DNA of 32,000 bases from Microcystis aeruginosa NIES-843 (GTDB taxonomy: Bacteria; Cyanobacteriota; Cyanobacteriia; Cyanobacteriales; Microcystaceae). The translations under genes and the position numbers were made by a program. A model generated the notes under the pieces. That model did no database searches. It worked only from the letters and a program-made list of their open reading frames with translations, and was not told where the DNA came from. Where the stretch lies: positions 5,160,001 to 5,192,000 of the forward strand of contig NC_010296.1 in assembly GCF_000010625.1 (NCBI RefSeq), given 5' to 3'. Every line of letters begins with the position of its first letter. Positions within the stretch are counted from its first letter, which is position 1. Below are positions 1 to 23,399 of the stretch, piece after piece.

Positions 1-272
1 AATAAATCTCCAGGTAACATCAATAAAGACTGACCTTGTTCATAGGCAATATAACGCTTTCCATCAACTCCTAGAACTCCAAAACGAATATCTCCACGAA
101 TTTTAGGTTTAGTTTCGGAAGTAACCTGAACTTCTGAATCTTTTGTCCACCAAGCATGGGACATTTGTAATCGCAAACCTGTATCTATGATACCCATATT
201 TCCAATATTGATGACAAGAAACCATAGCAAAGCGATTAAAGCCAATTCTGCTTTATATTTATTCTTTTTCAT
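1..272 (-). CDS. Hypothetical membrane-anchored protein, N-terminal part (gene continues past window start)
   Basis: Reverse-strand ATG at 272 stays open to position 1. Translation is MKKNKYKAELALIALLWFLVINIGNMGIIDTG..., with a hydrophobic N-terminal helix. It is absent from the ORF track because there is no in-window stop. Confidence 0.4.
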   Translation of the reverse strand, partial: MKKNKYKAELALIALLWFLVINIGNMGIIDTGLRLQMSHAWWTKDSEVQVTSETKPKIRGDIRFGVLGVDGKRYIAYEQGQSLLMLPGDL

Positions 273-322
273 GATTGCTCAATAAGTTAAAATTGTTCAC
301 ATTCAATTTTTGTTTCGCCAAT

Positions 323-442
323 TCAAGTCTGAATTGCATCACTGCCTGATCTATCTTCATAGAATACTTCATTCGGGGTAGGATAGTCAAGACATTTTTG
401 AGGACGATTGTTAATCAAGTTTACGGCTCTTTCTACTGGAGT
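323..442 (-). pseudogene. IS30-family transposase C-terminal fragment
   Basis: A stop-bounded 39-codon frame reads TPVERAVNLINNRPQKCLDYPTPNEVFYEDRSGSDAIQT*. It resembles the conserved IS30 C-terminal block (LNxRPRKxLxyxTPxEvF). There is no start codon or upstream body. Confidence 0.45.
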
Positions 443-708
443 TTAGACTAAATGTTTACCCAAGCGGTGATCGCCGAATCGCAAGGGCGATCGCTATTTC
501 AACGATCAAAGCCTGTTGTTTACATATATTAATAAAACGAGAATAACAGGTTCTTCGTTACTTAGTATGGTTCGATATGGGGGCATAAATCGACTGAATC
601 CTTATCTGGCAAGAGACTTAATTGATTAGTTCGCTCTAGATCGAAAACAATTGGCAAAAATTGCAGCAATGTCTTTCTATATAAGGGTTTCATCCCTTAT
701 AACCCCCG

Positions 709-870
709 TCCATTGCATAACACAAACCGAAGAGCCGGCTGGGAGAGATAGAAATGAGTTGAAAGTCTTGACCTTCATTATTTTGAATAATAATTTCTTG
801 GCCTTCTGCGGCGGCTTTAAGGAGTTCAGGTAGTTGACTTTGGGCTTCGTTTAAAGTTATTTTTAACATA
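709..870 (-). pseudogene. Truncated Phd/YefM-like antitoxin paralog
   Basis: The 53-aa ORF MLKITLNEAQSQLPELLKAAAEGQEIIIQNNEGQDFQLIS... matches the first ~40 aa of the intact antitoxin at 5052..5279. It then diverges and stops, and no vapC partner follows. Confidence 0.6.
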
Positions 871-922
871 GCTTTGTTGAGTTAAATATTAATTTTTAGC
901 TGATAATTTACTTTAGTTATCT

Positions 923-1110
923 CTAATTTATTATGAATTTATTCGAGAATTTTTTCACAATTTTTAAGCAAAAAATCGCCAATTCTTGGCATAATTTAAG
1001 CACTTGTTGGCAATAGCTGATAGCAAGTTCAGGGCGATTGGTTTTGTGGGCGATTTCAGCGAGAAACACCAATTCGGATTTGAAGTAGCGCAATGTTTCT
1101 AAATTATTGG
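923..1110 (-). pseudogene. Orphan TPR C-terminal tail fragment (copy T3)
   Basis: It encodes ...IANNLETLRYFKSELVFLAEIAHKTNRPELAISYCQQVLKLCQEL... Positions 980-1110 are near-identical in nucleotides to 5393-5525, and the fragment is related to the C-terminus of the 961-aa protein. The 3'-most part has diverged. The track ORF 923..1195 is a chimera with the relE remnant. Confidence 0.55.
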
Positions 1111-1364
1111 CGATAGACTTCTCTGCGATGTTTACATTGCAAGATGAGTATTGTCTGTTTCGCATCATCAATTTCATAAAGCACTCGATAATCACCGATA
1201 CGGAGACGGTGTTACTGTTCAGAATTTTTTAATTTAACAATGCCAGAAGGACAGGGTTCTATTTCCAAACCCTTAATTTTTTCAAGAATACGACCTTTCA
1301 TAGCATTAGGTAAGTCATCAATCTGTTTTTGTACAGATTTAGAGATTTTAATACTATAACCCAT
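1104..1364 (-). pseudogene. RelE/ParE-family toxin paralog with in-frame stop
   Basis: It reads MGYSIKISKSVQKQIDDLPNAMKGRILEKIKGLEIEPCPSGIVKLKNSEQ*HRLRIGDYRVLYEIDDAKQTILILQCKHRREVYRQ*. This is colinear with the intact 5520..5777 copy, but a TAA sits where a Tyr codon is expected. Confidence 0.65.
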
Positions 1365-1370
1365 TATGAT

Positions 1371-1605
1371 TTAATCCTTGCTCAAGTATTGTTCAAGGGT
1401 CACATAGTCGCCTGATTGATATTCATCCCGAACTTGCTGAAGTTCTGCTAGGGGTTTCCTCATCGTCTTGATAGGAAGCCTCTTCTGCTTGAAAAATTTG
1501 TTGTTCTAGTATTTCTAATAATTGTTGTTTTTGCGTTAAGTCAAGGGATTTAATGGCTTCGGTTAGAGATTCAAACGTAATTTTAAGATTGATGGTGGTA
1601 CTCAT
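1371..1605 (-). pseudogene. RelE-associated antitoxin paralog, frameshifted
   Basis: It is nearly identical to 5784..6017 in nucleotides. One extra base (ctgctaggggtttcc versus ctgctaaggtttcc) shifts the frame. The track ORF 1423..1605 therefore ends in the unrelated ...TPSRTSASSG. Confidence 0.65.
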
Positions 1606-1686
1606 GAAATTTCTCCTATTTGGATAAAAAGTTAAATTTTGAGAATTGCTTTAATTTTCATGGTTGGTATAGCTGATCAAGGGTTT

Positions 1687-1800
1687 CTAATTTCCTTCTA
1701 ATGTAACCTGAATTTTTACGAGGAGTTCCTCTCCGTCTTTCATTAGGGTAATGCCTAGCTCCTGGGGGAATTTAAGGGCTTGTTGGCAGTAGTTGAGAGC
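1687..1800 (-). pseudogene. Orphan TPR C-terminal tail fragment (copy T4)
   Basis: The reverse translation ALNYCQQALKFPQELGITLMKDGEELLVKIQVTLEGN* parallels ...LSHCQEALKLCQELGIPLVKDCEELLGQIQGNLGEANK* of the 961-aa protein. There is no start or upstream body. Confidence 0.5.
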
Positions 1801-1839
1801 GCAATCGCGGTCTTGAGAATTGTCCATCATATTTGAACG

Positions 1840-2178
1840 TTAAGCGACAGCAAAGCCTGTATAGGGTCTAATTTCAGGGGATTTAAAGGCTAAAATAATC
1901 TGGTTTTGAGGGATTCCCGCAGCTACTAATTCATCGGCAATACCATCCTCAGTTCCGTCGTGTTGAATCCAAATTTTTTGATCAATAATATCAATATGTA
2001 ATAGGGTTCCGTAGATTCGATAACCATTTTGCCAACCTGTTTCAACCAATAAATAGCGATCGCGGGTTTGATCTAGGACTAATTCGATTTGGATTTGGCG
2101 ATCGGTGTCGAGGAAGTCGGCATAATCTTGGAATGTTTTTTCAATAATTTGCCGATATTGGGCAATTAAGGAAGCCAT
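1840..2178 (-). CDS. xisI: XisI family protein
   Basis: The 112-aa product carries typical XisI blocks (LLVETGWQNGYRIYG, HIDIIDQKIWIQHDGTEDGIADELVAAGIP, PYTGFAVA). Its ATG overlaps the native 3' end of xisH. Confidence 0.85.
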   Translation of the reverse strand: MASLIAQYRQIIEKTFQDYADFLDTDRQIQIELVLDQTRDRYLLVETGWQNGYRIYGTLLHIDIIDQKIWIQHDGTEDGIADELVAAGIPQNQIILAFKSPEIRPYTGFAVA

Positions 2179-2215
2179 CGTACAATTACCTCCTGGTTGG
2201 GATCAAAACTAAATA

Positions 2216-2421
2216 GGGTTGGCTGAATAAATCTAAAAACCTTGTTGGGTAAAACTTTTAGACTTTTTGTCAATCAAAAAGTACCTGGCATGGGAGTGAT
2301 CAGGGGGAAAATTCAGGGACTTTTTCCCTGAAAATTAGGTAATTGACCACCTCAAAACCGGTAAAACCCCACACCCCACACCCCACACCCTGCCCCCAGG
2401 AAAAACTTTTTCAGCAGACCC
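2216..2421. mobile_element. MITE, non-autonomous relative of the IS5-family element at 19596..21277
   Basis: Its termini GGGTTGGCTGAATAAATCTAAAAACC ... GAAAAACTTTTTCAGCAGACCC match the IS ends. It is flanked by the direct repeat TAAATA (2210-2215 and 2422-2427). Internally it carries (CCCCACA)x3. Confidence 0.7.
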
Positions 2422-2803
2422 TAAATAACTGAATAATACCATCTTCAATTAAGGTTTGACCTGCTTCTTCTTCAAACACTGTTTTGCAGGTGTTTTCGCT
2501 AACAGCCAAAAATAGTTTATATTCGGGATAATAACGCCTTAAAAGATGGTTATAAACGACAAATTGACCAACTGCTTCTTCAAGGTCTTTCATGTCAGAG
2601 GGACGAGTAAAGCTCTTAATTTCAACGGCTATTTTTTCTGTTCCTTTTTCTGCGGCTAATAGTCTTTCTGCTCCCAAATCAACAAACAGGTTTTTACCTC
2701 TTGCTAAACGAATCCGTAGGGGGTCATGGGTAATTGTCCAGCCGTCTTTGATTAGGGCGTGTTTTACACAATCATGGAAAATATCTTTGGCAGGCATTTT
2801 CAT
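2411..2803 (-). CDS. xisH: XisH family protein, native C-terminus displaced by MITE insertion
   Basis: The 130-aa product has XisH-like blocks (MPAKDIFHDCVKHALIKDGWTITHDPL, IAVEIKSF). The last codons RVC* are read from the MITE terminal repeat. The native tail SFDPNQEVIVRWLP* is still readable at 2168-2213, on the other side of the MITE. Confidence 0.8.
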   Translation of the reverse strand: MKMPAKDIFHDCVKHALIKDGWTITHDPLRIRLARGKNLFVDLGAERLLAAEKGTEKIAVEIKSFTRPSDMKDLEEAVGQFVVYNHLLRRYYPEYKLFLAVSENTCKTVFEEEAGQTLIEDGIIQLFRVC

Positions 2804-2880
2804 GCTGTTCTATATAAACTCTATGTGATTATACATTTCTTCTGGTTCAAGAATTTCCCAGATTAAGAGTAGTCCTCGAA

Positions 2881-3144
2881 TTATTTGACCAATGATTTAC
2901 TTTGTTGGGGACAGTAAGCAATTCCTGCATGAGTTATAGATGATTGATTGATTCTTAAAAAATCAGTATCTTGAGTAAAAATCACGCGACCATTGGCTAA
3001 GGCAAATTGCAATTGTATTTCATCGGATACCCCCAATAAATTTTCTTCTGGAGTGGTAGTAACATCAAGGCCTCGCTGGCGCAATCCAAGAGCAATGTTA
3101 TAGCTTACATTTTCATCAAGGTGAAATTTAATTTTATTGCCCAT
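2881..3144 (-). CDS. DUF5615-like PIN/Mut7-C-type putative toxin
   Basis: The 87-aa product reads KFHLDENVSYNIALGLRQRGLDV...GRVIFTQDTDF, typical of DUF5615 partners of DUF433. Its start abuts the stop of the upstream gene. Confidence 0.7.
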   Translation of the reverse strand: MGNKIKFHLDENVSYNIALGLRQRGLDVTTTPEENLLGVSDEIQLQFALANGRVIFTQDTDFLRINQSSITHAGIAYCPQQSKSLVK

Positions 3145-3447
3145 TCATTTTTTTAGTTTTTCTTGGACTAGAGAAGGTGTTTTAGCTTGCATTTCCTTGG
3201 CAAAGGTATCATCATCTGTGATTTGTTGTCTAATTTCTTCAAGGTGATCGTGATAGTAAGAAAGGGCCGCGTAAACATCAGCTAAAGTAATGCTGGGATA
3301 ATGATAAACAATTTCATCGGGTGACATTCCCAGACGTTCGTGCCAAATAACGACATCTTGGACTTTGATGCGATGACCTGCGATGCGCGGTTTACCGCCA
3401 CAAGTTTCTGGGGTAATTTCAATGTGATTGATTAAAGTTGTTGTCAT
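3145..3447 (-). CDS. DUF433-like putative antitoxin
   Basis: The 100-aa product contains CGGKPRIAGHRIKVQDVVIWHERLGMSPDEIVYHYPSITLADVYAALSYY, the hallmark DUF433 core. It lies directly upstream of, and contiguous with, 2881..3144. Confidence 0.75.
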   Translation of the reverse strand: MTTTLINHIEITPETCGGKPRIAGHRIKVQDVVIWHERLGMSPDEIVYHYPSITLADVYAALSYYHDHLEEIRQQITDDDTFAKEMQAKTPSLVQEKLKK

Positions 3448-3555
3448 TGATAATAACGAATTTGTCCGATTATAGGGTCACAAGGAATCTGCGCCCAAAT
3501 GTTATATATATTATATCACGTCAAGGTTTATAGAATAATTTTATTATGACAACTC

Positions 3556-3774
3556 TTATAAACTTGAAGCTAATTGAGGCGCGACAATAGTTTCGAGGGA
3601 AAAAGCATTCAGATCCGTTAAGCTTCTGGCCTGTTCCAAGGTGATTGCACAAATGTTCCCATTTTTATCAAGATCTACCAAGGTATTTTCATTGATTTCT
3701 TGAGTCTCGACAATAGGATTGTTATTGAACTCTAAATATAGAGTGTCCGTATCTTGAAAGTAGGTGATTTTCAT
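3556..3774 (-). CDS. DUF2283-like small protein
   Basis: MKITYFQDTDTLYLEFNN...VDLDKNGNICAITLEQA matches the DUF2283 pattern. A disrupted paralog lies at 6819..7072. Confidence 0.7.
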   Translation of the reverse strand: MKITYFQDTDTLYLEFNNNPIVETQEINENTLVDLDKNGNICAITLEQARSLTDLNAFSLETIVAPQLASSL

Positions 3775-3793
3775 GGCTTAAAATTCCTCTACT

Positions 3794-4078
3794 TTAAATA
3801 AGTTGTAAGTCATCTTTTTCTAAGTCGTTAAGAGATTGATTCGTGATGAGAGAATAAAGAACATCGGGGTCTAAATCAGCCCCATTTTCCCAATAAATTG
3901 TTCCCCAATCAGGATTAATTTTGACGGTTTTTAAAAAATCTAAGTCTTTTAGCGGTTGAAAAATGCCAACAAACTCGATAATTTCTTCAAGATTAATAAT
4001 CCCCTCTTGATTATCTTCAAATTTAAGATAAAGTTGATAATTATTTAGAGGTTTCACTTCAACAATATCTTTTAGCAT
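3794..4078 (-). CDS. DUF2442-like small protein
   Basis: The 94-aa product has VKPLNNYQLYLKFEDNQEG and WGTIYWENGADLDPDVLY, the DUF2442 signature. It sits 19 nt upstream of the DUF2283-like gene. Confidence 0.7.
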   Translation of the reverse strand: MLKDIVEVKPLNNYQLYLKFEDNQEGIINLEEIIEFVGIFQPLKDLDFLKTVKINPDWGTIYWENGADLDPDVLYSLITNQSLNDLEKDDLQLI

Positions 4079-4174
4079 GGTTTATCCGTTTATTCTATTT
4101 AACTGATTCTCAACTTAGTCAAATATTAGGAAAAAATTTAAGATCCTTGATAAAAGTAAGAAGATAGTTAATTT

Positions 4175-4378
4175 TCATTCTTTTTCTAATTCAATTAAAG
4201 CTTCCTCAAGAGTTAAGGGTGTTTCATCTTTAACGTCTATCATGGCGCGATAGAGTCCAGTATCTTCATAGGTTTCTATTATTTGTTGATAATCTTCAAA
4301 ATTAATGATAACTTGCTGTATCTGACCTTGATTATCCGTAATCAAGTCTTGAGCAAAAGGATAATCTTTGATGTTCAT
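4175..4378 (-). CDS. Small acidic antitoxin-like protein
   Basis: MNIKDYPFAQDLI...YEDTGLYRAMIDVKDETPLTLEEALIELEKE has the acidic C-terminal pattern seen in RelB/ParD-like antitoxins. I prefer the ATG at 4378 over the track's GTG at 4420, because 4395-4420 is a remnant of another gene's 5' end. Confidence 0.5.
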   Translation of the reverse strand: MNIKDYPFAQDLITDNQGQIQQVIINFEDYQQIIETYEDTGLYRAMIDVKDETPLTLEEALIELEKE

Positions 4379-4412
4379 AATTAATTGTTCCTCATTTTGT
4401 GGACGGTTTGCA

Positions 4413-4595
4413 TTATTCACACTCCTTTGTTTCCAATTCTAATAGGATGGGAATTAAGTCTTTGGCAATATCAATGACGGCATCTATTGTATCAGCTTCA
4501 GCGACAAGTCCTTGTATATCGGGACTGGTGGCGACATAGTAATCTTGGCCGTTTTCTTGAAAGCGTTCAATGGTGAGGTTAATTGGGTTTTGCAT
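4413..4595 (-). CDS. HicB-like / DUF1902-like small protein
   Basis: The 60-aa product reads YYVATSPDIQGLVAEADTIDAVIDIAKDLIPILLE, typical of the HicB N-terminal/DUF1902 fold family. No hicA is evident upstream. Confidence 0.55.
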   Translation of the reverse strand: MQNPINLTIERFQENGQDYYVATSPDIQGLVAEADTIDAVIDIAKDLIPILLELETKECE

Positions 4596-4668
4596 GGAAA
4601 ATCAATAAGGTTTAAAGTTTGCCTGTTAGTTTTTGTGATTAATTTGCTAAAGTTTCTTCTTTTCAGGT

Positions 4669-5055
4669 TTACCACAATAAATTTTCAGTATATCGCTTAA
4701 ATAACTCATCTTTAGTGAGAATCGGAATATTTTCAGTTAAGCTTTGAGCGATTATTAGGCGATCAAAAGGATCTTTATGGTAGTAAGGGAGTCTCTTGAG
4801 TTGTTCGAGATGTTCGGCGTTAATAGATAGTATATCAAAGCCGTTATTATAAACATAATTTTGAATTAAATTTGGGAAAGTTGTCTTTAATTCTAATCTG
4901 TTAAGGCTGGCTTTGATGGACATTTCCCAGAGACTAGCGATACTTAATCGTTTTTGATATTGATTATTTTCGATCAGAGAACGAGCAGCATCACTGAGAT
5001 TATTATCACCTTCGATAAACCATAAAAAGGCGTGGGTATCCATTAAAATTTTCAT
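4669..5055 (-). CDS. vapC: PIN-domain toxin VapC
   Basis: The 128-aa product starts MKILMDTHAFLWF and contains DPFDRLIIAQS, both PIN acidic-residue motifs. Its start overlaps the upstream antitoxin stop in a 4-nt ATGA. Confidence 0.85.
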   Translation of the reverse strand: MKILMDTHAFLWFIEGDNNLSDAARSLIENNQYQKRLSIASLWEMSIKASLNRLELKTTFPNLIQNYVYNNGFDILSINAEHLEQLKRLPYYHKDPFDRLIIAQSLTENIPILTKDELFKRYTENLLW

Positions 5056-5279
5056 GGCATATATTCCTCAAATTCTTCGATGGGATCATCAAAATTGTCA
5101 AGCATTTTAACGATGCCTTTTGCGCTTCCATATTGGGGATGTTTAACAGTAGTAGGAAGAGAAATGAGTTGAAAGTCTTGACCTTCATGATTCTGGATAA
5201 TAACTTGTTCACCTTTTGAGGCAGCTTTAAGGAGGTCAGGTAGTTGACTTTGGGCTTCGTTTAAAGTTAGTTTTATCAT
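5052..5279 (-). CDS. Phd/YefM-like antitoxin of VapC
   Basis: The 75-aa product has an N-terminal LTLNEAQSQLPDLLKAASKGEQVIIQ and a C-terminal GSAKGIVKMLDNFDDPIEEFEEYM, typical of VapB/Phd-type partners. It is translationally coupled to vapC. Confidence 0.8.
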   Translation of the reverse strand: MIKLTLNEAQSQLPDLLKAASKGEQVIIQNHEGQDFQLISLPTTVKHPQYGSAKGIVKMLDNFDDPIEEFEEYMP

Positions 5280-5323
5280 AGCTTTGTTCAGTTAAATATT
5301 AATTTTTGAGATAATAATTTACC

Positions 5324-5533
5324 TTAATTATTCTCTAACGTAGCCTGAATTTGCCCTAACAGTTCCTCACAATATTTAACCAAGGGAATCCCCAATTCTT
5401 GGCATAATTTAAGCGCTTGTTGGCAATGGCTGAGGGCAAGTTGAGGGCGATTGGTTTTGTGGGCGATTTCGGCGAGAAACACCAATTCGGATTTGAAGTA
5501 GCGCAATGTTTCTAAATTATTAGCGATAGACAT
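5324..5533 (-). pseudogene. Orphan TPR C-terminal tail fragment (copy T2), 69-aa ORF overlapping the relE stop
   Basis: Positions 5344-5478 are ~95% identical by eye to 8275-8409, the 3' end of the 961-aa gene. It encodes ...AEIAHKTNRPQLALSHCQQALKLCQELGIPLVKYCEELLGQIQATLENN, a single TPR-like unit. Whether it is expressed is unknown. Confidence 0.5.
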
Positions 5534-5777
5534 CTCTTCGATGTTTACATTGCAAGATGAGTATTACCTGTTTTGGGTCATCAATTTCATAGCGAACTCG
5601 ATAGTCACCAACACGCAAACGGTATTCATAATCAGAATTTTTTAATTTGACTACACCAGGGGGACGAGGTTCTACTGATAAATCTTTGATTTTTTCAAGA
5701 ATACGACTTTTGATGGGATTAGGTAAGTTATCAATCTGTTTTTGTACAGATTTAGAGATTTTAATACTATAATCCAT
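5520..5777 (-). CDS. relE: RelE/ParE-family toxin
   Basis: The 85-aa product contains YRLRVGDYRVRYEIDDPKQVILILQCKHRRDVYR, a typical RelE/StbE C-terminal half. It lies 6 nt downstream of its antitoxin. Confidence 0.85.
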   Translation of the reverse strand: MDYSIKISKSVQKQIDNLPNPIKSRILEKIKDLSVEPRPPGVVKLKNSDYEYRLRVGDYRVRYEIDDPKQVILILQCKHRRDVYR

Positions 5778-5783
5778 TGTGAT

Positions 5784-6017
5784 TTAATCCTTGCTCAAGT
5801 ATTGTTCAAGGGTCACATAGTCGCCTGATTGATATTCATCCCGAACTTGTTGAAGTTCTGCTAAGGTTTCCTCGTCGTCTTGATAGGAAGTTTCTTCTGC
5901 TTGAAAAATTTGTTGTTCTAGTATTTCTAATAATTGTTGTTTTTGCGTTAAGTCAAGGGATTTAATGGCTTCGGTTAGAGATTCAAAAGTGATTTGAAGA
6001 TTGATGGTGGTACTCAT
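5784..6017 (-). CDS. Antitoxin partner of RelE/ParE
   Basis: This 77-aa acidic protein carries ...DDEETLAELQQVRDEYQSGDYVTLEQYL, a common cyanobacterial RelE-partner C-terminus. It sits directly upstream of relE. Confidence 0.75.
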   Translation of the reverse strand: MSTTINLQITFESLTEAIKSLDLTQKQQLLEILEQQIFQAEETSYQDDEETLAELQQVRDEYQSGDYVTLEQYLSKD

Positions 6018-6137
6018 GAAATTTCTCCTATTTGGATAAAAAGTTAAATTTTGATAATTGCTTTAATTTTCATGGTTGGTATAGGTGATCAAGAGTTTCT
6101 AATCTTCTTCTAATGTAGCCTGAATTTTTGCTAATCG

Positions 6138-6769
6138 TTAGTTAATAGAAGTTATCCAAGAAACGGGAACCGCTATCACGTCAATGGTTTCGTTATTGTC
6201 AAACATTTCTAGGAGATAACCGATAACACGATAACACGATAACAGATAACAGATAACAGATAACAGATAACAGATAACAGATAACAGATAACAGATAACA
6301 GATAACAGATAACAGATAACAGATAACAGATAACAGATAACAGATAACAGATAACAGATAACAGATAACAGATAACAGATAACAGATAACAGATAACAGA
6401 TAACAGATAACAGATAACAGATAACAGATAACAGATAACAGATAACAGATAACAGATAACAGATAACAGATAACAGATAACAGATAACAGATAACAGATA
6501 ACAGATAACAGATAACAGATAACAGATAACAGATAACAGATAACAGATAACAGATAACAGATAACAGATAACAGATAACAGATAACAGATAACAGATAAC
6601 AGATAACAGATAACAGATAACAGATAACAGATAACAGATAACCTGCTTCTGATTGTTGTTCCTTAGGAGGTAAATATTCAACAATTGTTCCCTGATCACC
6701 TTTTTTAAAAATAGTGTCGGGGACATCTCTACATAATTTGACTTGTTGAAAAAGTTGGACGGTTTGCAT
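6138..6769 (-). pseudogene. DUF4926-like gene disrupted by an internal GATAACA heptamer expansion
   Basis: The N-terminal part MQTVQLFQQVKLCRDVPDTIFKKGDQGTIVEYLPPKEQQSEAGYL runs into the array. The native continuation LEMFDNNETIDVIAVPVSWITSIN* lies after it in a different frame. The two GATAACC copies that bracket the insertion are 422 nt apart, which is not a multiple of 3. Confidence 0.7.
6215..6642. repeat. Heptanucleotide tandem array (GATAACA), 57 perfect units plus variant end units
   Basis: Perfect 7-bp periodicity runs 6238-6636 (399 nt), checked by phase at each line start. Variant units GATAACC and GATAACAC lie at 6215-6237, and a partial unit at 6637-6642. Confidence 0.95.
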
Positions 6770-6818
6770 TATTCACACTCCTTTGTTTCCAATTATAATA
6801 ATTTGTGATTACAAATTA

Positions 6819-7072
6819 TTATAAACTTGAAGCTAATTGAGGTGCGACAATAGTTTCGAGGGAAAAAGCATTCAGATACTTTAAGTTTTTGGCCTGTTTC
6901 AAGGTGATTGCACAAATATTCCCCTGCTGATCAAGATCGACCAAGGTATTTTGTATTTTGTATTTTGTATTTGGTATTTGGTATTTTCATTGATTTCTTG
7001 AGTCTCGACAATAGGATTGTTATTGAACTCTAGGTATAGAGTATCCGTATCCTGAAAGTAGGTGATTTTCAT
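6819..7072 (-). pseudogene. DUF2283-like paralog disrupted by a GTATTTT heptamer expansion
   Basis: It is colinear with 3556..3774 (start MKITYFQDTDTLYLEFNNNPIVETQEINE...). However, ccaaggtattttcattg in the intact copy is ccaag(gtatttt/gtatttg)x6 cattg here. That is 35 extra nt, giving a frameshift. Confidence 0.7.
6946..6987. repeat. Heptanucleotide tandem array (GTATTTT/GTATTTG) x6
   Basis: Read directly from the sequence: gtattttgtattttgtattttgtatttggtatttggtatttt. Confidence 0.9.
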
Positions 7073-7168
7073 GGCTGACTTGGGTTATCAAGAGTTTCTA
7101 ATCTTCTTCTAATAGTGATTCATTTGGCGGCGATTGCGGTTTTGAGAATTGTCCATCATATTTGAAAG

Positions 7169-7504
7169 TTAAGCGACAGCGAAGCCTGTATATTGACGTA
7201 TTTTAGGTTCATGGAATCCCAAAACAATATCTTCTTTAGCAATGCCTGCGCTTAGTAATTCTTTGGTGATACCGTCTTCGGTGTTGTCACATTGTACCCA
7301 AATTTTGTCGTTAATAATTTCTAAATGAATCAGACAATCATGATAACGCTGATTCTGTTGCCAACCTTCTGAAATGACGAGATATTGATCATTCTGAGGA
7401 TCAAAAGCTAGACGATTTTGAATGTCCGCATTGTTATAAATAATTTGGCTATAGGGGACAAGAATCTGATGAATAATTTTGCGGTAATGGTTTAGTTTAT
7501 CCAT
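7169..7504 (-). CDS. xisI: XisI family protein (second copy)
   Basis: The 111-aa product contains YLVISEGWQQNQRYHDCLIHLEIINDKIWVQCDNTEDGITKELLSAGI...YTGFAVA, parallel to 1840..2178. The downstream flank attgcggt.ttgagaattgtccatcatatttgaa is shared with the first copy. Confidence 0.85.
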   Translation of the reverse strand: MDKLNHYRKIIHQILVPYSQIIYNNADIQNRLAFDPQNDQYLVISEGWQQNQRYHDCLIHLEIINDKIWVQCDNTEDGITKELLSAGIAKEDIVLGFHEPKIRQYTGFAVA

Positions 7505-7655
7505 TGGGTGATTACCTCATTGTCATGGTTAAAGATAATTAGTTTTAGTGTTTTTTCTTCAAGGAGTATTTGACCAATTTCTTGATGAAATAAGCTGTTG
7601 AAAGTTTTTTCCCGAATAGCAAGATAAAGAGTTCTATCTAAAAGTTGGCGAAAGT
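7492..7655 (-). pseudogene. XisH 5'-truncated remnant
   Basis: The frame NFRQLLDRTLYLAIREKTFNSLFHQEIGQILLEEKTLKLIIFNHDNEVITQWIN* matches the C-terminal third of XisH and overlaps the xisI ATG, as in intact pairs. A stop lies immediately upstream and there is no N-terminal part. Confidence 0.65.
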
Positions 7656-7661
7656 TTTATC

Positions 7662-7907
7662 TTAGACTGAGACTAATTCAGGTTCACTGATCAGCCGTAG
7701 AAGTTTTGAGTGATCAACGGTTTCCATCGCAAAGGTTTGGCCGTTTTGATCGGTAAAATCAATCAGAAAAGCTTGCTGATTAAAAGACATTAAAACAGTT
7801 CCCATTTGTCCGCGACGCAGAAGGATGGGCTGATGGGTCGTTTTGTGAGTAGCCGTAACATCTTCCGTTAGGGCAACGAGATCGTATTCTTGAATGGTGT
7901 TCATCAT
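7662..7907 (-). CDS. DUF4926-like small protein, third gene of the TIR-STAND operon
   Basis: The 81-aa product reads EYDLVALTEDV...LRRGQMGTVLMSFNQQAFLIDFTDQNGQTFAMETV, as I recall the DUF4926 pattern. Its start is 7 nt after the stop of the DUF6883-like gene. Confidence 0.6.
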   Translation of the reverse strand: MMNTIQEYDLVALTEDVTATHKTTHQPILLRRGQMGTVLMSFNQQAFLIDFTDQNGQTFAMETVDHSKLLRLISEPELVSV

Positions 7908-7914
7908 GGGCTAG

Positions 7915-8247
7915 TTAATTAATGGGATAGACATTAGTAAGACGAGGAAAATTTTCAGTTATTTGGACAATCCAGCAACTTAAAATTAAGGATTCTCCGA
8001 TGTCGGTACAGAGGTTAAATTTCAGATCATAGTGAGTGCCATATTGATCGATTTTATAAAGTTCGGCTTCTCCTTCCATTACTGCTTTTTTAAGAGCATT
8101 TTCTAGGATTTCTTTATTAGCTAAGGTAATCCCTAATCTTTGTTTGAAAAGCAAGGCTTTATGTTTTCCTTTTGAATGCTCAGGATTGAGGCAGTAACGT
8201 TCAAGTTTGTCTCCTAGGTTGGCTTGATCGGCATTAGGAAGTTTCAT
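7915..8247 (-). CDS. DUF6883-like small protein, second gene of the TIR-STAND operon
   Basis: The 110-aa product contains KLERYCLNPEHSKGKHKALLFKQRLGITLAN...DQYGTHYDLKF...SCWIV...FPRLTNVYP. This matches my memory of the DUF6883 consensus (K..dYcLn..Hp.G.hKA.vF...LG.t...YG.rY...F....sWIv....PRL.t.Y). Its ATG lies 1 nt after the stop of the 961-aa gene. Confidence 0.6.
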   Translation of the reverse strand: MKLPNADQANLGDKLERYCLNPEHSKGKHKALLFKQRLGITLANKEILENALKKAVMEGEAELYKIDQYGTHYDLKFNLCTDIGESLILSCWIVQITENFPRLTNVYPIN

Positions 8248-8248
8248 T

Positions 8249-11134
8249 TTATTTGTTGGCTTCTCCTAAGTTTCCCTGAATTTGCCCTAACAGTTCCTCA
8301 CAATCTTTAACCAAGGGAATCCCCAATTCTTGGCATAATTTAAGCGCTTCTTGGCAATGGCTGAGGGCAAGTTCAGGGCGATTAGTTTTGTGGAAGATTT
8401 CGGCAAGAACTCTTAAACTATAGGCGATTAAATATTTATAATCAATATCTTGAGAAATTACTAAGGATGCTTGAATTTTGCTTTCGGCTTCGCTGTAGTT
8501 TTCTAGTTTGAGCAATATACTCCCTATAGTATGTAGAGAAGATGCTACCCCTTGCCAATCGCCGATTTTTTCACTGATGTCGAGAGATTGCTGGTGATAG
8601 GCGATCGCTTTTTCATACTGTCCCAAGGAAGAATAACAATTGCTTAGATTACCGAAAGAAATTGCCACCCCTTGCCGAAAGCTGATTTTTTCACTGATGT
8701 CGTGATATTGCTGGTAGAGGTCGATCGCTTTTTCATACTGTCCTAGGTCATAATAACAATTGCCTAAATTCCCGAGAGAAATTGCCACCCCTTTCCGATC
8801 GCCCATTGCTTCACTGATGTCGTGACATTGCTGGTGATAGAAAATTGCTTTTTCATACTGCCCCAAGGACTTATAACAATTGCCTAAATTACCGAGAGAA
8901 CTTGCCACCCCTTGCCGATAGCCGATTTCTTCACTGATTTCGAGAGATTGCTGATGATAGGCGATCGCCTTTTCATACTGCCCTAACGAGTAATAACAAC
9001 TACCCATATTGCCTAAAGAAATTGCCACCCCTCGCCGATCGCCGATTTCTTCACTGATGTCGTGATATTGCTGGTGATAGGCGATCGCCTTGTCATACTT
9101 CCCTAACGACTTATAACAAAATCCCAGATTGCCTAAAGAAATTGCCACCCCTTGCCAATCTTCCATTTCCTTACTGATGTCGAGACATTGCTGGTTGAAT
9201 GCGATCGCTTTTTCGTACTGTCCCAAGGAACGATAACAACTTCCCAAATAACTTAACGAGTTACGATAACAAACTTGTTCCCGTTGACTCCCTGCAATCA
9301 CCTGTTCATAATGATCTGCTTGCTTACGATAAAATCCTTGTAAATCTAAAAAACTATCAACCGATTTATTTTTCCATTCTCCGCCTCGATCCTCATCCAA
9401 AATATCGTAAGCTAACTGCCATTCTCCCAATTCCCCTGCATGGTAAAACGCCTCTAAATATTCCTTCAAATCTTCCAAGGATTCCCAGGGAGGGACAGGT
9501 AAATGAGCTAAATAATAATCTAAGGCTAATTGATGGGCAGATCGCAATATTTCAGGATTTGCTTGATCTTGCACCACCATGGAAATTAAAGGCAAAAACT
9601 GAAACTGTCGCCGTTTTACATTGTATTCGGGGGGAAATTCTTGTAATAAAGACAAACGAGCTAAATAGCGTAAATCTTCCTCAGTTATTTCTGGAATTAA
9701 CCCCTGGGCTAACCTGTCATCAAAATTCTCCCGCAGTACCGACAACCGCGTTAAACTCTCCCTAAATTCTTTCGATAATCGCTCTAAACTGGCGGTAATC
9801 ACTTCTCTAACACAGGTTTCCGTGTCGCGGTGATACCCTTCCACATCAAACATATTTAAGCCCAAATTTTGCGACTCAGTGACAGAAACCCCTTTCCCAA
9901 ACTTATCTTTCATCAAACTACAAACCAGTTCCATTAAGAGGGGATGACCTCCCATTTTATCGACAAATTGGGCTAATTCTTCATCGCTTCCCGTTAAGCC
10001 GTGATCTTCGGTGACATAACGCATCGCATCCGCTTCTTTTAACCCTTTTAAAGGCCAAGAATAATAATAATCTTGCAAATTGACGGGGAATTTTAGCTGT
10101 TCTCGACTGGTGACTAATAGCTTACTGCTGCTTTCTGTGTTTAACCATTTTTGCAAGAATTGCTGATAAACCAAATTTACTGGGGCAGTTAGTACCGTTT
10201 CCAAATTATTCAACACTAATAAACAGGGTTTAGCGGTTAACCCTTTGCTGATTGCGTCTATTAATTGCCCATCATTCCATTTTTCATCATAATTTTGTTT
10301 TAACTCCTCTAATAACCACCGTCCGAACTGTGCCAAAGGGTAAGGCTGGTTAAAATTAACCCATAATACCGGCCAATCAGCAGTTAATTGATCTGTAAAC
10401 TTTCTCGCCAGAGCAGTTTTACCATAACCCCCGGCGGCGGTAATCTCGATTAACCTTAGATGGTCATTCCCTAACGCTGTTTGGAGTTCTTGCAATTCTT
10501 CCCGTCGTCCTTGCCATCTACGCACGGGTGGGAGTTGCGTATCCACTAACCCAGAGGTGGTCAGGGGTTGGACCGCTTTTTTAGAGGGTTCAGACTGTTT
10601 TTTTTTAGATTCTTCAATCAGCGATCGCAATTTATCCTCAACGGATACGAAAACTTTTTCATATTCTGATTTCTTTAGATCACAGAGAGGATTGCTGGGA
10701 GAATTATTGCTAGGAGACTGAAATTGATGTAAGTAAAATCTTTGTTCTATTCCCTCTTCATTAGTGTATTTAAAAGAAACACTTTTCACAGTAGAATGTC
10801 TAAGAAATATAGGAATTATAACGACTCCTTCTTCTTCACGTCTTTTCAAAATACGGGGTAATTCTTCATTCTTCACATAACGAGAATTAAGCAGATCTTG
10901 GCTAACCAAGACCATCGCAATTGTTACTTGTGATAAACTGTCTTTAATTTTTTCATCCCAAATATCCCCCGGTTGTATGTCGATATCTGACCAGACTATT
11001 TTTTCCTCATCATTCAGAGGTTCGAGAAATTTTAACAGTCTGTCTCTCCATCCTTTGTCTTGGTGGGAATAACAAATAAAAATTGATGGCATATCTTTTT
11101 CCTCTGACATAACCACTTTTCTGTTATACCACAT
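8249..11134 (-). CDS. TIR domain / NB-ARC-type STAND P-loop NTPase / TPR-repeat protein (bacterial NLR-like)
   Basis: The N-terminus is TIR-like: IFICYSHQDKGWRDRLLKFLEPL...VLVSQDLLNSRYVKNEELPRIL...IIPIFL. The centre carries Walker A AAGGYGKTALA, a Walker B-like CLLVLNNLE, LLVTSRE and GGHPLLMEL (a GxP motif). The C-terminus has about 8 x 40-aa TPR units (LGNLGNCYxSLGQYEKAIxYHQQ). The start could instead be the ATG at 11110 (MSEEKD...). Confidence 0.85.
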   Translation of the reverse strand: MWYNRKVVMSEEKDMPSIFICYSHQDKGWRDRLLKFLEPLNDEEKIVWSDIDIQPGDIWDEKIKDSLSQVTIAMVLVSQDLLNSRYVKNEELPRILKRREEEGVVIIPIFLRHSTVKSVSFKYTNEEGIEQRFYLHQFQSPSNNSPSNPLCDLKKSEYEKVFVSVEDKLRSLIEESKKKQSEPSKKAVQPLTTSGLVDTQLPPVRRWQGRREELQELQTALGNDHLRLIEITAAGGYGKTALARKFTDQLTADWPVLWVNFNQPYPLAQFGRWLLEELKQNYDEKWNDGQLIDAISKGLTAKPCLLVLNNLETVLTAPVNLVYQQFLQKWLNTESSSKLLVTSREQLKFPVNLQDYYYSWPLKGLKEADAMRYVTEDHGLTGSDEELAQFVDKMGGHPLLMELVCSLMKDKFGKGVSVTESQNLGLNMFDVEGYHRDTETCVREVITASLERLSKEFRESLTRLSVLRENFDDRLAQGLIPEITEEDLRYLARLSLLQEFPPEYNVKRRQFQFLPLISMVVQDQANPEILRSAHQLALDYYLAHLPVPPWESLEDLKEYLEAFYHAGELGEWQLAYDILDEDRGGEWKNKSVDSFLDLQGFYRKQADHYEQVIAGSQREQVCYRNSLSYLGSCYRSLGQYEKAIAFNQQCLDISKEMEDWQGVAISLGNLGFCYKSLGKYDKAIAYHQQYHDISEEIGDRRGVAISLGNMGSCYYSLGQYEKAIAYHQQSLEISEEIGYRQGVASSLGNLGNCYKSLGQYEKAIFYHQQCHDISEAMGDRKGVAISLGNLGNCYYDLGQYEKAIDLYQQYHDISEKISFRQGVAISFGNLSNCYSSLGQYEKAIAYHQQSLDISEKIGDWQGVASSLHTIGSILLKLENYSEAESKIQASLVISQDIDYKYLIAYSLRVLAEIFHKTNRPELALSHCQEALKLCQELGIPLVKDCEELLGQIQGNLGEANK
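8500..9260. repeat. Intragenic 120-bp tandem periodicity (TPR-coding units)
   Basis: The motif (a/c)ttgccacccct(t/c)(g/t)cc recurs at 8661, 8781, 8901, 9021 and 9141. A related copy, gatgctaccccttgcc, lies in the same register at 8541, giving an exact 120-nt spacing. Long near-identical stretches occur between units. Confidence 0.85.
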
Positions 11135-11567: not shown

Positions 11568-13295
11568 TTAATACTTACGTTCCACGGGGGTGAAATCCTG
11601 AATCACCACGGGCATATAGTCGATATCGATGCCGGAGGGGGAATAATAGGCGAGGGTATGCTGAAGGAAATTTTGGTCATCCCGTTGGGGAAAATCTTCG
11701 CGGGAATGGGCCCCTCGGCTTTCTTGACGATTGAGGGCAGAGGTGAGGATAATTTCCCCCACCACCATGAGACTTTGTAATTCCCAGGCCTCGATTAGTT
11801 CCGTATTCCAGCAATCCCCCCTATCATCGAGGTAAATCTGCTCGTATTGGCGCTTTAATTCGCCGATTTGTTTAATTCCCTCGCGCATGGTCGCTTCGGT
11901 GCGAAAAACGCCGCAATGTTGGGTCATACAGTCTTGGAATTGCTGACGTAGTTGACCGATGCGAATCGTGCCTTTTTTGGTCAATAAAGCGGTGATTTCC
12001 TCTTTGGCATCCTGAAGGTAAATATCGGGATTAAAGACGGGAAAAGCGCGTTTTTCGACGTATTTAGCGATCGATTTGCCGGTTCTTCTCCCATAGACCA
12101 CACATTCTAACAGGGAATTACTGCCCAAACGATTGGCCCCGTGGACGGAGACACAGGAACATTCCCCGGCGGAGAAAAAGCCTTCGCTGAGGGTATCGGC
12201 ACTTAAGCGAACGCGACCATCGGTATTAACGGGAATGCCTCCCATACAATAGTGAACTGTAGGACGGACGGGCATCGGTTCCTCTACCGCATCGACACCG
12301 ACGAGACGGTGGGCCTCCTCCCAACAAAAGGGAATGCGACTCATAATTTTTTCCCGGCCTAAATGGCGTAAATCCAGATAGACAAAGGGACCCCCGGCGC
12401 TACCGTCCAGATTTACCCCCCGGCCGGCGCGAATTTCTAGGGTAATGGCCCGGGAAGTGATGTCCCGGGGTGCCAATTCCATGCGCGAGGGGGCGTAGTC
12501 TTCCATAAAACGACGACCTTCGCTATTGATTAAATAAGCGCCTTCACCCCGGACCGCTTCCGAGATTAAAACACCGACGGGATAGAGTCCCGTGGGGTGA
12601 AATTGGACAAATTCCATGTCTTCTAGGGGAATACCCGCTTTTGCCGATAAAGCTAAACCGTCTCCCGTACAGGCGAAATCGTTGGAGGTGGTGTTATAAA
12701 CGCGACCATAGCCCCCCGTCCCGAACATAATTGCTTTTGCCCGGAGGATTTCTAACTGTCCGGTGGCGATTTGGTACATTACTACCCCTTTAGCCGTACC
12801 TTCTTCGAGGATAAGACGCAAAACGTACCATTCATCGTAGATTTTTACCTGATTACGGCCTAAATTGCTGACTAATTCGTGCAGCATGGCGTGACCGGTT
12901 TTATCGGCGGCGTAACAGGCACGGTTATGGCTGTGACCGCCAAAGGCTCTTTGGGCAATGCGTCCATCTTCGAGACGGGAGAATAACACGCCTAGATGTT
13001 CCAATTCGATGATAACTTCGGGGGCTTCTTTGGTGAGAATATCCACTGCATCCTGGTCAGCCAGAAAATCGGAACCTTTGACAGTATCGTAGGCGTGGGC
13101 CTTGGGATTATCTTTGGGGTCAACGTTTTGCAGGGCGGCGGCGATACCTCCCTGGGCGGCGACGGAGTGGGAACGAATCGGGTGGGTTTTGGCAACGACA
13201 GCAACATCGATAGTCGGGTTGAGGCGTTTGATTTCTAAGGCGGCGCGGCATCCTGCTAACCCACCGCCCACTATAACGACATCGTGTTCTTTCAT
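11568..13295 (-). CDS. sdhA: Succinate dehydrogenase/fumarate reductase flavoprotein subunit
   Basis: The 575-aa product has an N-terminal FAD-binding [26 protein letters not shown] carries the covalent-FAD histidine context. HPTG, RGEG and the C-terminal [11 protein letters not shown] blocks are also present. Confidence 0.9.
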
Positions 13296-13381
13296 GGCTG
13301 ATTTTTCTAGGGGCTTCTGTTTCTATGGTGGGGTGAGAATTGCTCGGAAGTCAGTTTTGTAACCGAGACTTTATATTTCAC

Positions 13382-13451
13382 GAGACAGGAGACAGGAGAT
13401 AAGAGACAGGAGACAGGAGACAGGAGGCAGGAGATAGGAGATAGGAGACAG
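13382..13451. repeat. Heptamer STRR array (GAGACAG family, 10 units with variants)
   Basis: The units read gagacag gagacag gagataa gagacag gagacag gagacag gaggcag gagatag gagatag gagacag. The array lies ~87 nt upstream of the sdhA start. Confidence 0.9.
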
Positions 13452-13486
13452 TAGCCGGTCGTCAGGAGACTATTTTTATTGATTCT

Positions 13487-13616
13487 CCCCACTTCCCCAC
13501 TTCCCCACTTCCCCACTTCCCCACTTCCCCACTTCCCCACTTCCCCACACCCCACACCCCACACCCCACACCCCACACCCCACACCCCACACCCCACACC
13601 CCACACCCCACACCCC
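13487..13616. repeat. Adjacent C-rich tandem arrays: (CCCCACTT)x7 then (CCCCACA)x10
   Basis: Octamer units start at 13487, 13495 ... 13535. Heptamer units start at 13543 ... 13606, followed by a final CCCC. The complementary strand is GGGG-N3/4 repeated 18 times. Confidence 0.95.
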
Positions 13617-13649
13617 AAAAAAACAACCCGCGGCAGTTAACCGCGAGTT
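13612..13649 (-). terminator. Probable intrinsic terminator of petE
   Basis: The hairpin lies 23 nt past the petE stop. On the minus strand it reads aactCGCGGttaactgCCGCGggtt, extendable with one mismatch, and is followed by gttttttt. Confidence 0.55.
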
Positions 13650-16387: not shown

Positions 16388-16598
16388 AAGCTTGTAGGTT
16401 TGGTTGAGCGATTTAATACTTAGGAGAAATTTGACAGCTTGTAGGTTGGGTTGAGCGCTTTAATACTTAGGGGAAACCTGCTCGATTCAATGGTTTGAGC
16501 GAAACCCAACATTCTTGACGACATTGGTGTGGTTGGGTTTCCCTCAAGCGTCGCTAATATTTGACAGACAAAAGTTATTATTGCTCAAGTCAACCTAC
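16388..16598. mobile_element. MITE-like composite repeat with GTAGGTTGGGTTGAGC termini
   Basis: Two tandem ~48-bp units begin agcttgtaggt(t)tgg(g)ttgagcg (16388 and 16436). A ~100-bp module follows, with an internal 10-bp stem GAAACCCAAC-N20-GTTGGGTTTC, ending in the inverted terminus gctcaagtcaacctac. Confidence 0.55.
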
Positions 16599-17678: not shown

Positions 17679-17776
17679 GAAACCCAACATTCTTGACGAC
17701 ATTGGTGTGGTTGGGTTTCGCTCAAGCGTCGCTAATATTTGACAGACAAGAGTTATTATTGCTCAACCCAACCTAC
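17679..17776. repeat. Second copy of the ~98-bp module of the 16388..16598 element
   Basis: Positions 17679-17776 match 16501-16598 with about 5 differences. Both are in the same orientation, so they form direct repeats flanking 16599-17678. Confidence 0.85.
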
Positions 17777-22526: not shown

Positions 22527-23330
22527 TTAGGCTTTATTGGTCACGCCGGTTAGTTCTAGTCGTTCAAACATGGCAAATCGTGCTTTCAGGGCCAGAGAAT
22601 CATCAAGTTTTGTTAAAAAAATCGGTTTTTGATACTTTTGTTCTAAAGCTTTTTGGATTAACCAATCGGCTAAAAAGGGATTTTTGGGTAGTAGGGGACC
22701 GTGGGCATAGGTAGCGATCGCATTGTGGTAAAATGCTCCTTCATAACCGTCCTCTCCGTTATTTCCGTAACCAGTAATCACCTTTCCCAAGGGAGAAACG
22801 GTTTGTAAATAGGTACGACCCCCGTGATTTTCAAAGCCAATTACTAGCGGTTTTTCCCCAGTCATAGCTTTAATTTCCTCCGCTAAGGGAGAGGCAGTAA
22901 TTTCAAAAACCACGTTACCGATACAGCGTTTTGCATTGGGGCCGGGATGTTTACTTACTAGGTCTAATAATCCTAATCCTTCGATTCTTTGACCGAAAGC
23001 TGGTTCGTAATAATGCCCTAATAATTGTGGGGAACCACAGGTAAAAACCCCCGGTATTCCTGCCGATAATTGTTCTTTCATCGCTGCCGCTTTTTTACCC
23101 TGTAAATCGCGCATAACGATCTCCTGTTGCCGATCCTGCGCTCCACCCCCAACAATTATATCTACTTGATAAAATGTCTCGGCTTCTGTTTGAGCATCTA
23201 GGGGAATAATTGTCACAGGAATATCACGCCATTGACATCTTCTTTGAATAGTAATAACATTACCTCGATCGCCGTAGGTACTCATTAAGGTCGGATATAA
23301 CCAGCCGATTTTTAGTTCTAGTTCTTGCAT
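22527..23330 (-). CDS. gatD: GatD-like glutamine amidotransferase (CobB/CobQ-type GATase, MurT partner)
   Basis: The 267-aa product contains LYPTLMSTYGDRGN, GGGAQDRQQ, the nucleophile context GVFTCGSPQLLGHYY and YAHGPLLPKNP. It sits downstream of murT on the same strand. Confidence 0.75.
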   Translation of the reverse strand: MQELELKIGWLYPTLMSTYGDRGNVITIQRRCQWRDIPVTIIPLDAQTEAETFYQVDIIVGGGAQDRQQEIVMRDLQGKKAAAMKEQLSAGIPGVFTCGSPQLLGHYYEPAFGQRIEGLGLLDLVSKHPGPNAKRCIGNVVFEITASPLAEEIKAMTGEKPLVIGFENHGGRTYLQTVSPLGKVITGYGNNGEDGYEGAFYHNAIATYAHGPLLPKNPFLADWLIQKALEQKYQKPIFLTKLDDSLALKARFAMFERLELTGVTNKA

Positions 23331-23340
23331 AATTTTTAAT

Positions 23341-23399
<59 letters not shown>

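Follow-up and report, generated by a model that had tools for sequence, protein, structure and literature searches.

A STAND gene beside sdhA heads an array of small gene cassettes

Microcystis genomes are notoriously fluid and rich in toxin-antitoxin (TA) and defence genes, and the turnover of their small-gene islands is poorly described. Here, we analysed a 32,000-nucleotide (nt) stretch of the Microcystis aeruginosa NIES-843 chromosome (NC_010296.1, positions 5,160,001 to 5,192,000; hereafter the window), which contains such an island headed by an immune-receptor-like gene. The 3' tail of this gene (hereafter T) recurs between the small-gene cassettes, and different strains carry different cassettes on either side of it.

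The array starts with a 961-amino-acid (aa) TIR-NB-ARC-TPR gene (8249..11134) that adjoins sdhA (11568..13295), and every gene of the island (~600-11134) is carried on the minus strand. Pfam matches in the head gene are TIR_2 (residues 18-114), NB-ARC (residues 213-411), and TPR_12/TPR_1 repeats (best match at residues 703-775), with a MalT-like TPR region at residues 830-959. The gene therefore has the N-terminal effector, the NB-ARC NTPase, and the C-terminal repeat sensor of a STAND/NOD-like receptor (NLR)-like protein, and it is 90-96% orthologous in two of the loci compared below (L003 and L005). The native tail (8249-8409, minus strand) was delimited from nt identities, a tail hidden Markov model (HMM), and alignment, and it includes a 66-nt common core (8276-8341). 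T corresponds to the last ~45 codons of the head gene, that is, the last TPR helix and the C-terminal cap, and its final codons (GNLGEANK*) overlap the start of the next gene, DUF6883 (TAAAATG). The TPR region at 8403-9302 consists of six 120-nt units with 63-81% identity to a reference unit, a high internal conservation that recalls fungal NLR repeats. The STAND gene varies in length by strain (858, 960, or 961 aa).

The cassettes behind the head gene were assigned by Pfam. The first (7169..8247) comprises DUF6883 (7915-8247), DUF4926 (7662-7907), and XisI (7169-7504). A TA cassette (5520..6017) follows, with a 77-aa antitoxin (5784-6017) and a ParE/RelE toxin (5520-5777; Pfam ParE_toxin). 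Next is a run of small paired cassettes (1840..5279): a Phd-like antitoxin (5052-5279) with VapC/PIN (4669-5055), HicB-like/DUF1902 (4413-4595), RelB-like (4175-4420), DUF2442 (3794-4078), DUF2283 (3556-3774), DUF433 (3145-3447), DUF5615/PIN-like (2881-3144), XisH (2411-2803), and XisI (1840-2178). A second, decayed antitoxin-relE copy, in which the antitoxin is frameshifted and relE truncated, was identified at 1212..1605 from open reading frames (ORFs) and self-alignment. Adjacent small genes with toxin or antitoxin domains, as expected of type II TA modules, are represented by ParE_toxin, PIN, RelB-like, and HicB-like/DUF1902; the PhdYeFM match is weak and below the Pfam cut-off. Judged by sequence, the cargo between the tails is small gene pairs typical of type II TA and related modules.

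Three observations concern the cargo itself. First, ~85 tandem TTATCTG heptamers (6140-6747) lie inside a DUF4926-like ORF remnant (start 6769) and give rise to 'LSVICYL' repeat ORFs of 175-186 aa. NIES-102 (L036), near-identical to the window, appears to have a shorter array: its ORF at 8876-9325 is ~110 nt shorter than that of the window. The array is probably a hypervariable microsatellite. Second, a 45-nt repeat (4400-4444 and 6756-6800, 98% identical) represents the 3' end of the HicB-like gene and a remnant of it before the DUF4926-like ORF, a second instance of a gene 3' end persisting at a cassette junction. Third, the 77-aa antitoxin is directly followed by the Phd-like antitoxin at two loci (L009, 2347-2853; L014, 7917-8423). 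Both relE and the tail are gone there, and the deletion stops just past the tail stop codon (window positions 5762 and 5321).

Orphan copies of the tail lie between the cassettes

A tail HMM recovered four long copies of T in the window. The native tail (8275-8409) matches 5344-5478 at 94.8% identity over 135 nt (E=1.7e-56), 955-1065 at 85.7% over 112 nt (E=5e-31), and 1707-1800 at ~70% (E=5e-6), and 1697-1800 in turn matches the 5344 copy (E=1e-8). The recurrence of the head-gene tail claimed in the initial annotation of this DNA is thus confirmed, at 5324-5490, 923-1075, and 1687-1830 and in two stubs, and all of these copies lie, as it had stated, on the same strand, which is the minus strand.

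The relE-linked orphan (5324..5490; core 5345-5410) sits inside a 69-aa ORF (5324..5533) that overlaps the stop of relE/ParE (5520..5777) by 14 nt; the overlap and an identity of ~95% had both been read correctly by eye. This orphan ends in ATLENN* and is linked to the Phd-like/VapC cassette. An xisI-linked orphan (1687..1830; core 1708-1773) belongs to a diverged class, is ~70% identical to the native tail, and forms a 47-aa ORF. The copy at 923..1075 is a decayed and frameshifted duplicate of 5324-5490, as judged from repeat alignments and ORF clusters P0014-P0017. Of the stubs, one (6099..6131) keeps only the last 10 tail codons (KIQATLEED*) and, by repeat alignment, a shared downstream junction (6066-6114). 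The other (7098..7160; upstream flank class U5) is an xisI-linked tail (ATGATGGACAAT...) that lost its core by internal deletion and retains the last codons together with the shared junction to a DUF2283 start (7065-7113). The copies had been described as lying directly 3' of a toxin or xisI gene without exception; the stub at 6099-6131 departs from this because it follows the heptamer array.

Some of these copies share an origin. Self-alignment revealed a segmental duplication of 971 nt at 89% identity (arms 750..1717 and 5160-6129), and the copies at ~980 and ~5344 have both flanks in common because of it. Furthermore, the downstream junction is common to the two stubs, and the xisI-to-tail junction and the tail-to-'ATGAAAAT' junction are each common to two or three copies. 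Taking the duplication and the shared junctions together, the window holds three independent junction types: native gene, relE to T, and xisI to T. A contribution of segmental duplication had been anticipated, and the window alone offers less independent evidence than was assumed at the time.

The tail is the main junction at which cassettes are reshuffled

We next compared the window with other genomes. A scan of species-representative genomes for T yielded 35 loci, to which we added the places that encode the 69-aa ORF (including M. viridis NIES-102, near-identical to the window) and 55 metagenome loci. The combined set holds 86 core copies at 58 Microcystis-type loci. When the 69-aa ORF was used as a protein query, 35 clusters of 43-121 aa were retrieved, and almost all of them come from Microcystis; that the long genes were missed reflects a word-index limit, not biology. 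Among these clusters, the relE-class upstream junction ('...SIANNLETLRYFKSELVFLAEIAHKTNRP') bears at least five different C-terminal ends, and hybrids between tail classes are seen (P0010, P0023, and P0026).

All Microcystis loci represent one chromosomal site beside sdhA, with very different cassette orders, and the two complete chromosomes matched in the scan yielded a single T locus each. We rejected the idea that T is a genome-wide dispersed repeat or a MITE (a miniature transposable element with inverted repeats) on the grounds that the scan yielded one locus per complete genome, always beside sdhA. Across the 58 loci, 85 of the 86 core copies are co-oriented with their array. The sole inverted copy belongs to a pair of convergent overlapping tails (L001, 373-821).

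An anchored alignment of the tails showed that 66 nt are common to every copy (GAATTATGCCAAGAATTGGGGATTCCCTTGGTTAAAGATTGTGAGGAACTGTTAGGGCAAATTCAGG) and that the two sides of this core behave differently. The 5' part of T tracks the upstream context, which can be the native TPR body, the stop of relE, the end of a RelE-like toxin of 89 aa, the stop of xisI, or the end of NCAB1. The last 5-12 codons and the stop track the downstream cassette, not the upstream context: GNLGEANK* pairs with DUF6883, ATLENN* with Phd/VapC, DSDNNLK* with xisH, ATLEGD* with the HicB-like gene, and ATLEED* with a DUF2283-start remnant that is followed by antitoxin-relE. Both flanks could be read for 82 copies, which sort into 11 upstream and 12 downstream classes in 30 combinations, and the native gene body alone joins eight downstream flank classes.

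Two further measures single out T. In a gene-order graph, T has nine successors (2.84 bits) and nine predecessors (2.59 bits), and the next most promiscuous elements have six, four, and three successors. By a hand tally, ~13 of ~40 distinct synteny-block ends relative to the window fall in or at T. As T accounts for 6.8% of the island, breakpoints are about five times commoner inside T than expected from its length. At two loci (L052 and L053) the native body is joined via T straight to the Phd/VapC cassette, the product expected of exchange between the first and second T of the window. When only isolate and complete genomes are considered, three different cassettes follow the native T (in the window and NIES-102, in FBCC-A1114 and BLCC-F210, and in LEGE 91341), and the isolate or closed genomes T1-4 and LSC13-02 show the NCAB1-linked T followed by two others. 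Hence, T is the main cassette junction, although not the sole one. The initial annotation had suggested a preferred recombination site through which cassettes are swapped. Strain comparison, flank combinations, and breakpoints support this part of the proposal: many independent flank combinations exist that a single duplication does not explain, and the breakpoints coincide with T. A 'landing site' served by a dedicated recombinase is the part that did not hold up.

That annotation had also raised the possibility of a graveyard, in which the orphans are relics of several tandem STAND-TPR genes whose bodies were deleted or replaced by TA modules, with T inactive in later exchange. The 5' truncation points do vary among classes, decayed copies and stubs are present (923-1075, 6099-6131, and 7098-7160), one class (L043 and L050) retains ~65 further TPR codons, and a different NLR fills the same slot in some strains. 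However, none of the 58 arrays contains a TIR or NB-ARC fragment, and the ~65-codon class is the only other TPR fragment. Truncation is confined to the last 5-12% of the gene, which random deletion would not yield, and the combinatorial flanks and the co-variation of the T end with the downstream cassette require exchange within T. The two tail classes that had pointed to several different truncated genes also have a simpler source: 'NNLETL...' belongs to the 3' flank of relE and occurs behind relE in L020, which has no tail there, and 'AEIAHKTNRP' is a common allele of the same gene in other strains. We consider a graveyard quite unlikely, and already largely refuted. A separate candidate, that 'NNLET' in the 69-aa ORF is the Walker-B region (LVLNNLETVL) of a collapsed STAND gene, was rejected as well, since the match covers only ~15 nt and the same tail-less context in L020 carries it.

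The different NLR in the sdhA-adjacent slot (L002, 4561-8221; also L031, L047, L094, and L095) is an EAD4-NB-ARC-TPR gene (1145 aa) with an NCAB1 fragment, and it meets the tail exactly where the 66-nt core begins. This gene and the head gene of the window both have the linker 'SEPSKKAV', which suggests that N-terminal modules are swapped too.

Exchange points are scattered within the tail

Within the core, common single-nucleotide polymorphisms (SNPs) show almost no linkage with the class of either flank (adjusted mutual information ≤0.17), and all four gametes occur in 35 of 55 core SNP pairs, some only 2-10 nt apart. The exchange points are therefore scattered, a pattern that fits homologous recombination or gene conversion and not a fixed crossover.

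A site-specific alternative is that T serves as the site of a recombinase encoded elsewhere, possibly assisted by XisH/XisI, so that cassettes excise as circles and reinsert at T in the manner of an integron. The unidirectional array of small, TA-rich cassettes with a repeated separator is as in chromosomal integrons, xisH and xisI are present with tails often following xisI, and native tails have an imperfect inverted repeat of 15 nt on either side of the core. The inverted repeat is absent from orphan classes that exchange equally freely, and classes that lack its left arm still exchange. No integrase or serine recombinase was found among the window ORFs and Pfam matches or beside the arrays in complete genomes, and the flanks of L003, L005, L007, and L036 contain no integrase-like ORF or Pfam match. 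Folding of the tail DNA on both strands gave z-scores of -1.5 to +1.15, no better than shuffled sequence; together with the scatter of exchange points, this speaks against a conserved secondary structure or recombinase site in the tail, which had been named as something to look for. Between genera (Microcystis- versus Pseudanabaena-type), T is conserved at the protein level only, with a third-codon-position identity of 0.47 in the core. We consider a site-specific system very unlikely. Two candidate signs of a recognition site were also discarded. DNA-level conservation of T was rejected on the third-position identity; an attC-like hairpin was rejected because the fold is insignificant and GTTAGGG/CTCAAC resembles attC R boxes imperfectly and is lacking in several of the classes that exchange.

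The distal ends of the arrays are insertion sequence (IS) remnants or core genes. At the distal end in the window, 259-418 (minus strand) looks by eye like the C-terminal remnant of an IS30-family transposase, and a similar ORF follows the array in L003.

We also considered whether the orphans code for mini-proteins with a function, such as TPR-cap peptides acting as NLR modulators. Of 55 orphan cores, 54 have an open frame with a nearby stop, an ATG start is present in some orphans, and ORFs of 43-93 aa are annotated in many genomes. Open frames are, however, also expected where conversion from the native gene refreshes the copies. Start contexts vary or are absent among classes, decayed and internally deleted copies are tolerated, and the xisI-linked class of two strains differs by ~9 nonsynonymous to 5 synonymous changes (counted by eye). 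The orphans are probably not functional, and a role as NLR-modulating peptides seems to us extremely improbable.

Tail-punctuated arrays arose more than once in cyanobacteria

Orthologous STAND-TPR genes with 58-68% aa identity are present in Pseudanabaena, Snowella, Merismopediaceae, and uncultured cyanobacteria. At one such locus (L020), a full-length gene is followed by three orphan tails split by antitoxin-relE, DUF4926, HicAB-like pairs, and a RelB-like gene; two others (L013 and L032) have one orphan tail each. Orphans in L020, L013, L032, and L030 are 71-98% identical at the nt level to the native tail of their own lineage (five of six at 85-98%) versus 68-76% to Microcystis tails. As the orphans are closer to the tail of their own lineage, this architecture must have arisen independently more than once.

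Several cassettes share 80-95% protein identity between genera, versus ~60% for the head gene. Between the window and loci L017, L020, L021, L023, and L033, identities are 86-95% for DUF4926, 86-88% for DUF6883, 81-88% for RelB-like, 75-90% for HicB-like, 81% for the antitoxin, and 84% for relE, and 54-63% for the head STAND gene. That cassettes are far more similar than the head gene hints at cassette transfer between co-occurring bloom cyanobacteria.

A model for cassette shuffling without a recombinase

At these loci, a shared flank carries alternative cargo, exchange points are spread, and no mobility gene was found, which is what recombinase-free exchange predicts. Given the repeats, their co-orientation, their combinatorial flanks, the scattered exchange points, and a search that found no recombinase gene or fold, we think it fairly probable that cassettes are shuffled by homologous recombination at T, acting as a portable homology patch. 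In this model, a few illegitimate events would have fused cassette ends to points within T, producing 5'-truncated orphans, and would also have put new cassettes at, or just before, the T stop codon. The ~66-135-nt stretch common to the native tail and the orphans could thereafter act as the patch. RecA-type homologous recombination and gene conversion between T copies, intrachromosomal or with DNA of other strains, would be the agent, and transformation may be the source of the donor DNA. Exchange between two T copies would delete, duplicate, insert, or swap the intervening blocks, and every exchange would rewrite the final 5-12 NLR residues. The orphans would be non-functional remnants, kept 'fresh' through conversion.

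Recombination between direct repeats should delete the block in between, and TA modules can counter-select such deletions in other systems; a stabilizing role has been proposed for the TA cassettes of chromosomal integrons. TA addiction may likewise guard the blocks here against T-by-T deletion, which would explain why mostly TA-like content survives between T copies.

Several points weigh against homologous recombination at T. First, the shared stretch is short: the core is 66 nt, and runs of perfect identity cover ~20-40 nt, which is close to the minimum that RecA needs to recombine DNA efficiently. Second, junctions without T also vary, namely those that follow DUF2283, the HicB-like gene, and the DUF4926-like remnant. 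Third, many loci are contigs of short-read metagenome-assembled genomes or metagenomes in which the repeated nature of T can lead to chimeric joins, and part of the 30 combinations may be artefacts of this kind. Fourth, the 5' truncation points of the orphans fall within the last ~53 codons of the 961-codon gene (~120 codons in one class), and their 5' limits span tail-HMM positions 1-31. This clustering is poorly accounted for by homologous recombination alone and is the main unexplained point.

The confinement of the truncation points motivates a further explanation, in which T remnants carry expression signals (a promoter, a ribosome-binding site, or translational coupling) for the cassette that follows. 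Deletions that silence an antitoxin would be lethal, so that surviving ones stop inside T. Such a protected leader would account for truncation points within 60-160 nt of the stop. It also agrees with the overlap of the DUF6883 start and the T stop, with the position of T directly before DUF6883 in 17 of 17 cases in the gene-order graph, with the invariable retention of the 3' end and loss of the 5' end in orphans, and with the HicB-like 3'-end remnant that precedes another ORF. On the other hand, a consensus scan detected neither a promoter-like site within T nor an enrichment across the island, several cassettes begin 26-45 nt past the stop with leaders of their own, and the DUF6883 cassette has its own leader without T in L021 and L023. 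Nor would this explanation alone produce the 30 flank combinations. We regard a protected leader as unlikely; it is compatible with shuffling by homologous recombination at T. A promoter or terminator inside T was rejected as a candidate, with nothing beyond shuffled expectation.

We also put forward, tentatively and with some doubt, a broader proposal: the array may be a working recombinase-free analogue of an integron. The 3' end of an NLR gene would serve to capture, stack, and swap TA/defence cassettes within and between bloom-forming cyanobacteria via DNA uptake and homologous recombination. TA addiction would stabilize the stack, the receptor C terminus would be rewritten with each capture, and the architecture would be upheld by selection instead of being debris, having arisen independently in Microcystis and in lineages of the Pseudanabaena/Snowella type.

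Other features of the window

Intergenic short tandem repeats occur at 13364-13640 and 23326-23410, composed of (GGAGACA)n, (TCCCCACT)n, and (ACCCCAC)n, and give rise to spurious repeat ORFs. A 98-nt direct repeat (16501-16598 and 17679-17776, 96% identity) is possibly MITE-like. On the plus strand, a 500-aa ORF (19725-21227) appears transposase-like by eye, and the N terminus of a 570-aa ORF (26704-28416) resembles by eye a DUF262/GmrSD-type nuclease; if so, it is another defence-type gene.

Discussion

The analysis offers a rule that is concrete and can be checked: cassettes are gained, lost, and exchanged mainly along a ~100-nt remnant of an immune-receptor gene, with no mobility gene. If general, this rule would explain strain-level variation of TA and defence genes in bloom populations, make sdhA-NLR a marker locus for strain typing, add a recombinase-free route to integron-like modular evolution, and provide an example of NLR gene ends that are repeatedly rewritten. 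It also carries a warning for annotation, in that 'hypothetical proteins' of 43-93 aa at T sites are gene remnants.

Chromosomal integrons, such as the Vibrio superintegron, are arrays of attC-bounded cassettes with an IntI integrase and attI. The T array resembles them in that small cassettes, often TA modules, all point one way, with a repeat between them and an order that varies among strains. The recombination element is split in both cases; here, the end of T moves with the downstream genes and its start with the upstream genes. In contrast to integrons, the array is headed by a STAND gene beside sdhA, neither intI nor attI was found, and the repeat is a protein-coding gene remnant without an attC hairpin, with scattered exchange points.

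In polymorphic toxin loci (Rhs, CdiA, MafB), an orphan carries a new functional toxin tip with its immunity gene, and homology lies 5' of the variable part. Such Rhs/contact-dependent inhibition (CDI) loci share with the T array the same-strand, 5'-truncated 3' copies downstream of a full-length gene, the small partner genes between them, and a shared homology that permits replacement of the main gene's end. Here, however, the repeated part is the conserved end, only 5-12 residues vary, and the cargo consists of independent TA-type pairs instead of alternative functional C-terminal domains with immunity genes.

Islands that insert at the 3' end of a gene, whether for a tRNA, a tmRNA, or a protein, leave a second copy of that end, as e14 does in icd. 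As in those islands, direct repeats of a gene 3' end bound the DNA, the target gene stays intact, and tandem accretion leads to displaced ends; unlike in those islands, we found neither an integrase nor an att core at a fixed place, and the 5' limits vary. In Neisseria, minimal mobile elements, like other replacement-type flexible islands, exchange cargo between intact neighbouring genes by transformation and homologous recombination. Alternative cargo between conserved flanks and the lack of mobility genes are shared with the T array, whose flank is instead a gene remnant of ~100 nt, repeated and multiplying inside the array.

We found no description of tail-punctuated arrays in the literature searched, where the nearest case in Microcystis is a TA module of M. 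aeruginosa PCC 7806 that lies between two identical 152-bp direct repeats downstream of the orthocaspase gene MaOC1 (PMC7935541). Both cases are in the same genus and have a TA pair after a cell-death or immunity-type gene, bounds formed by direct repeats, and a presence that varies among strains. The MaOC1 repeat differs in being non-coding, with an internal inverted repeat, and it bounds a single cassette, is not a remnant of the upstream gene, and forms no array (PMC7935541). The T array works like an integron or an Rhs/CDI orphan array, yet it departs from both in the very features that define them.

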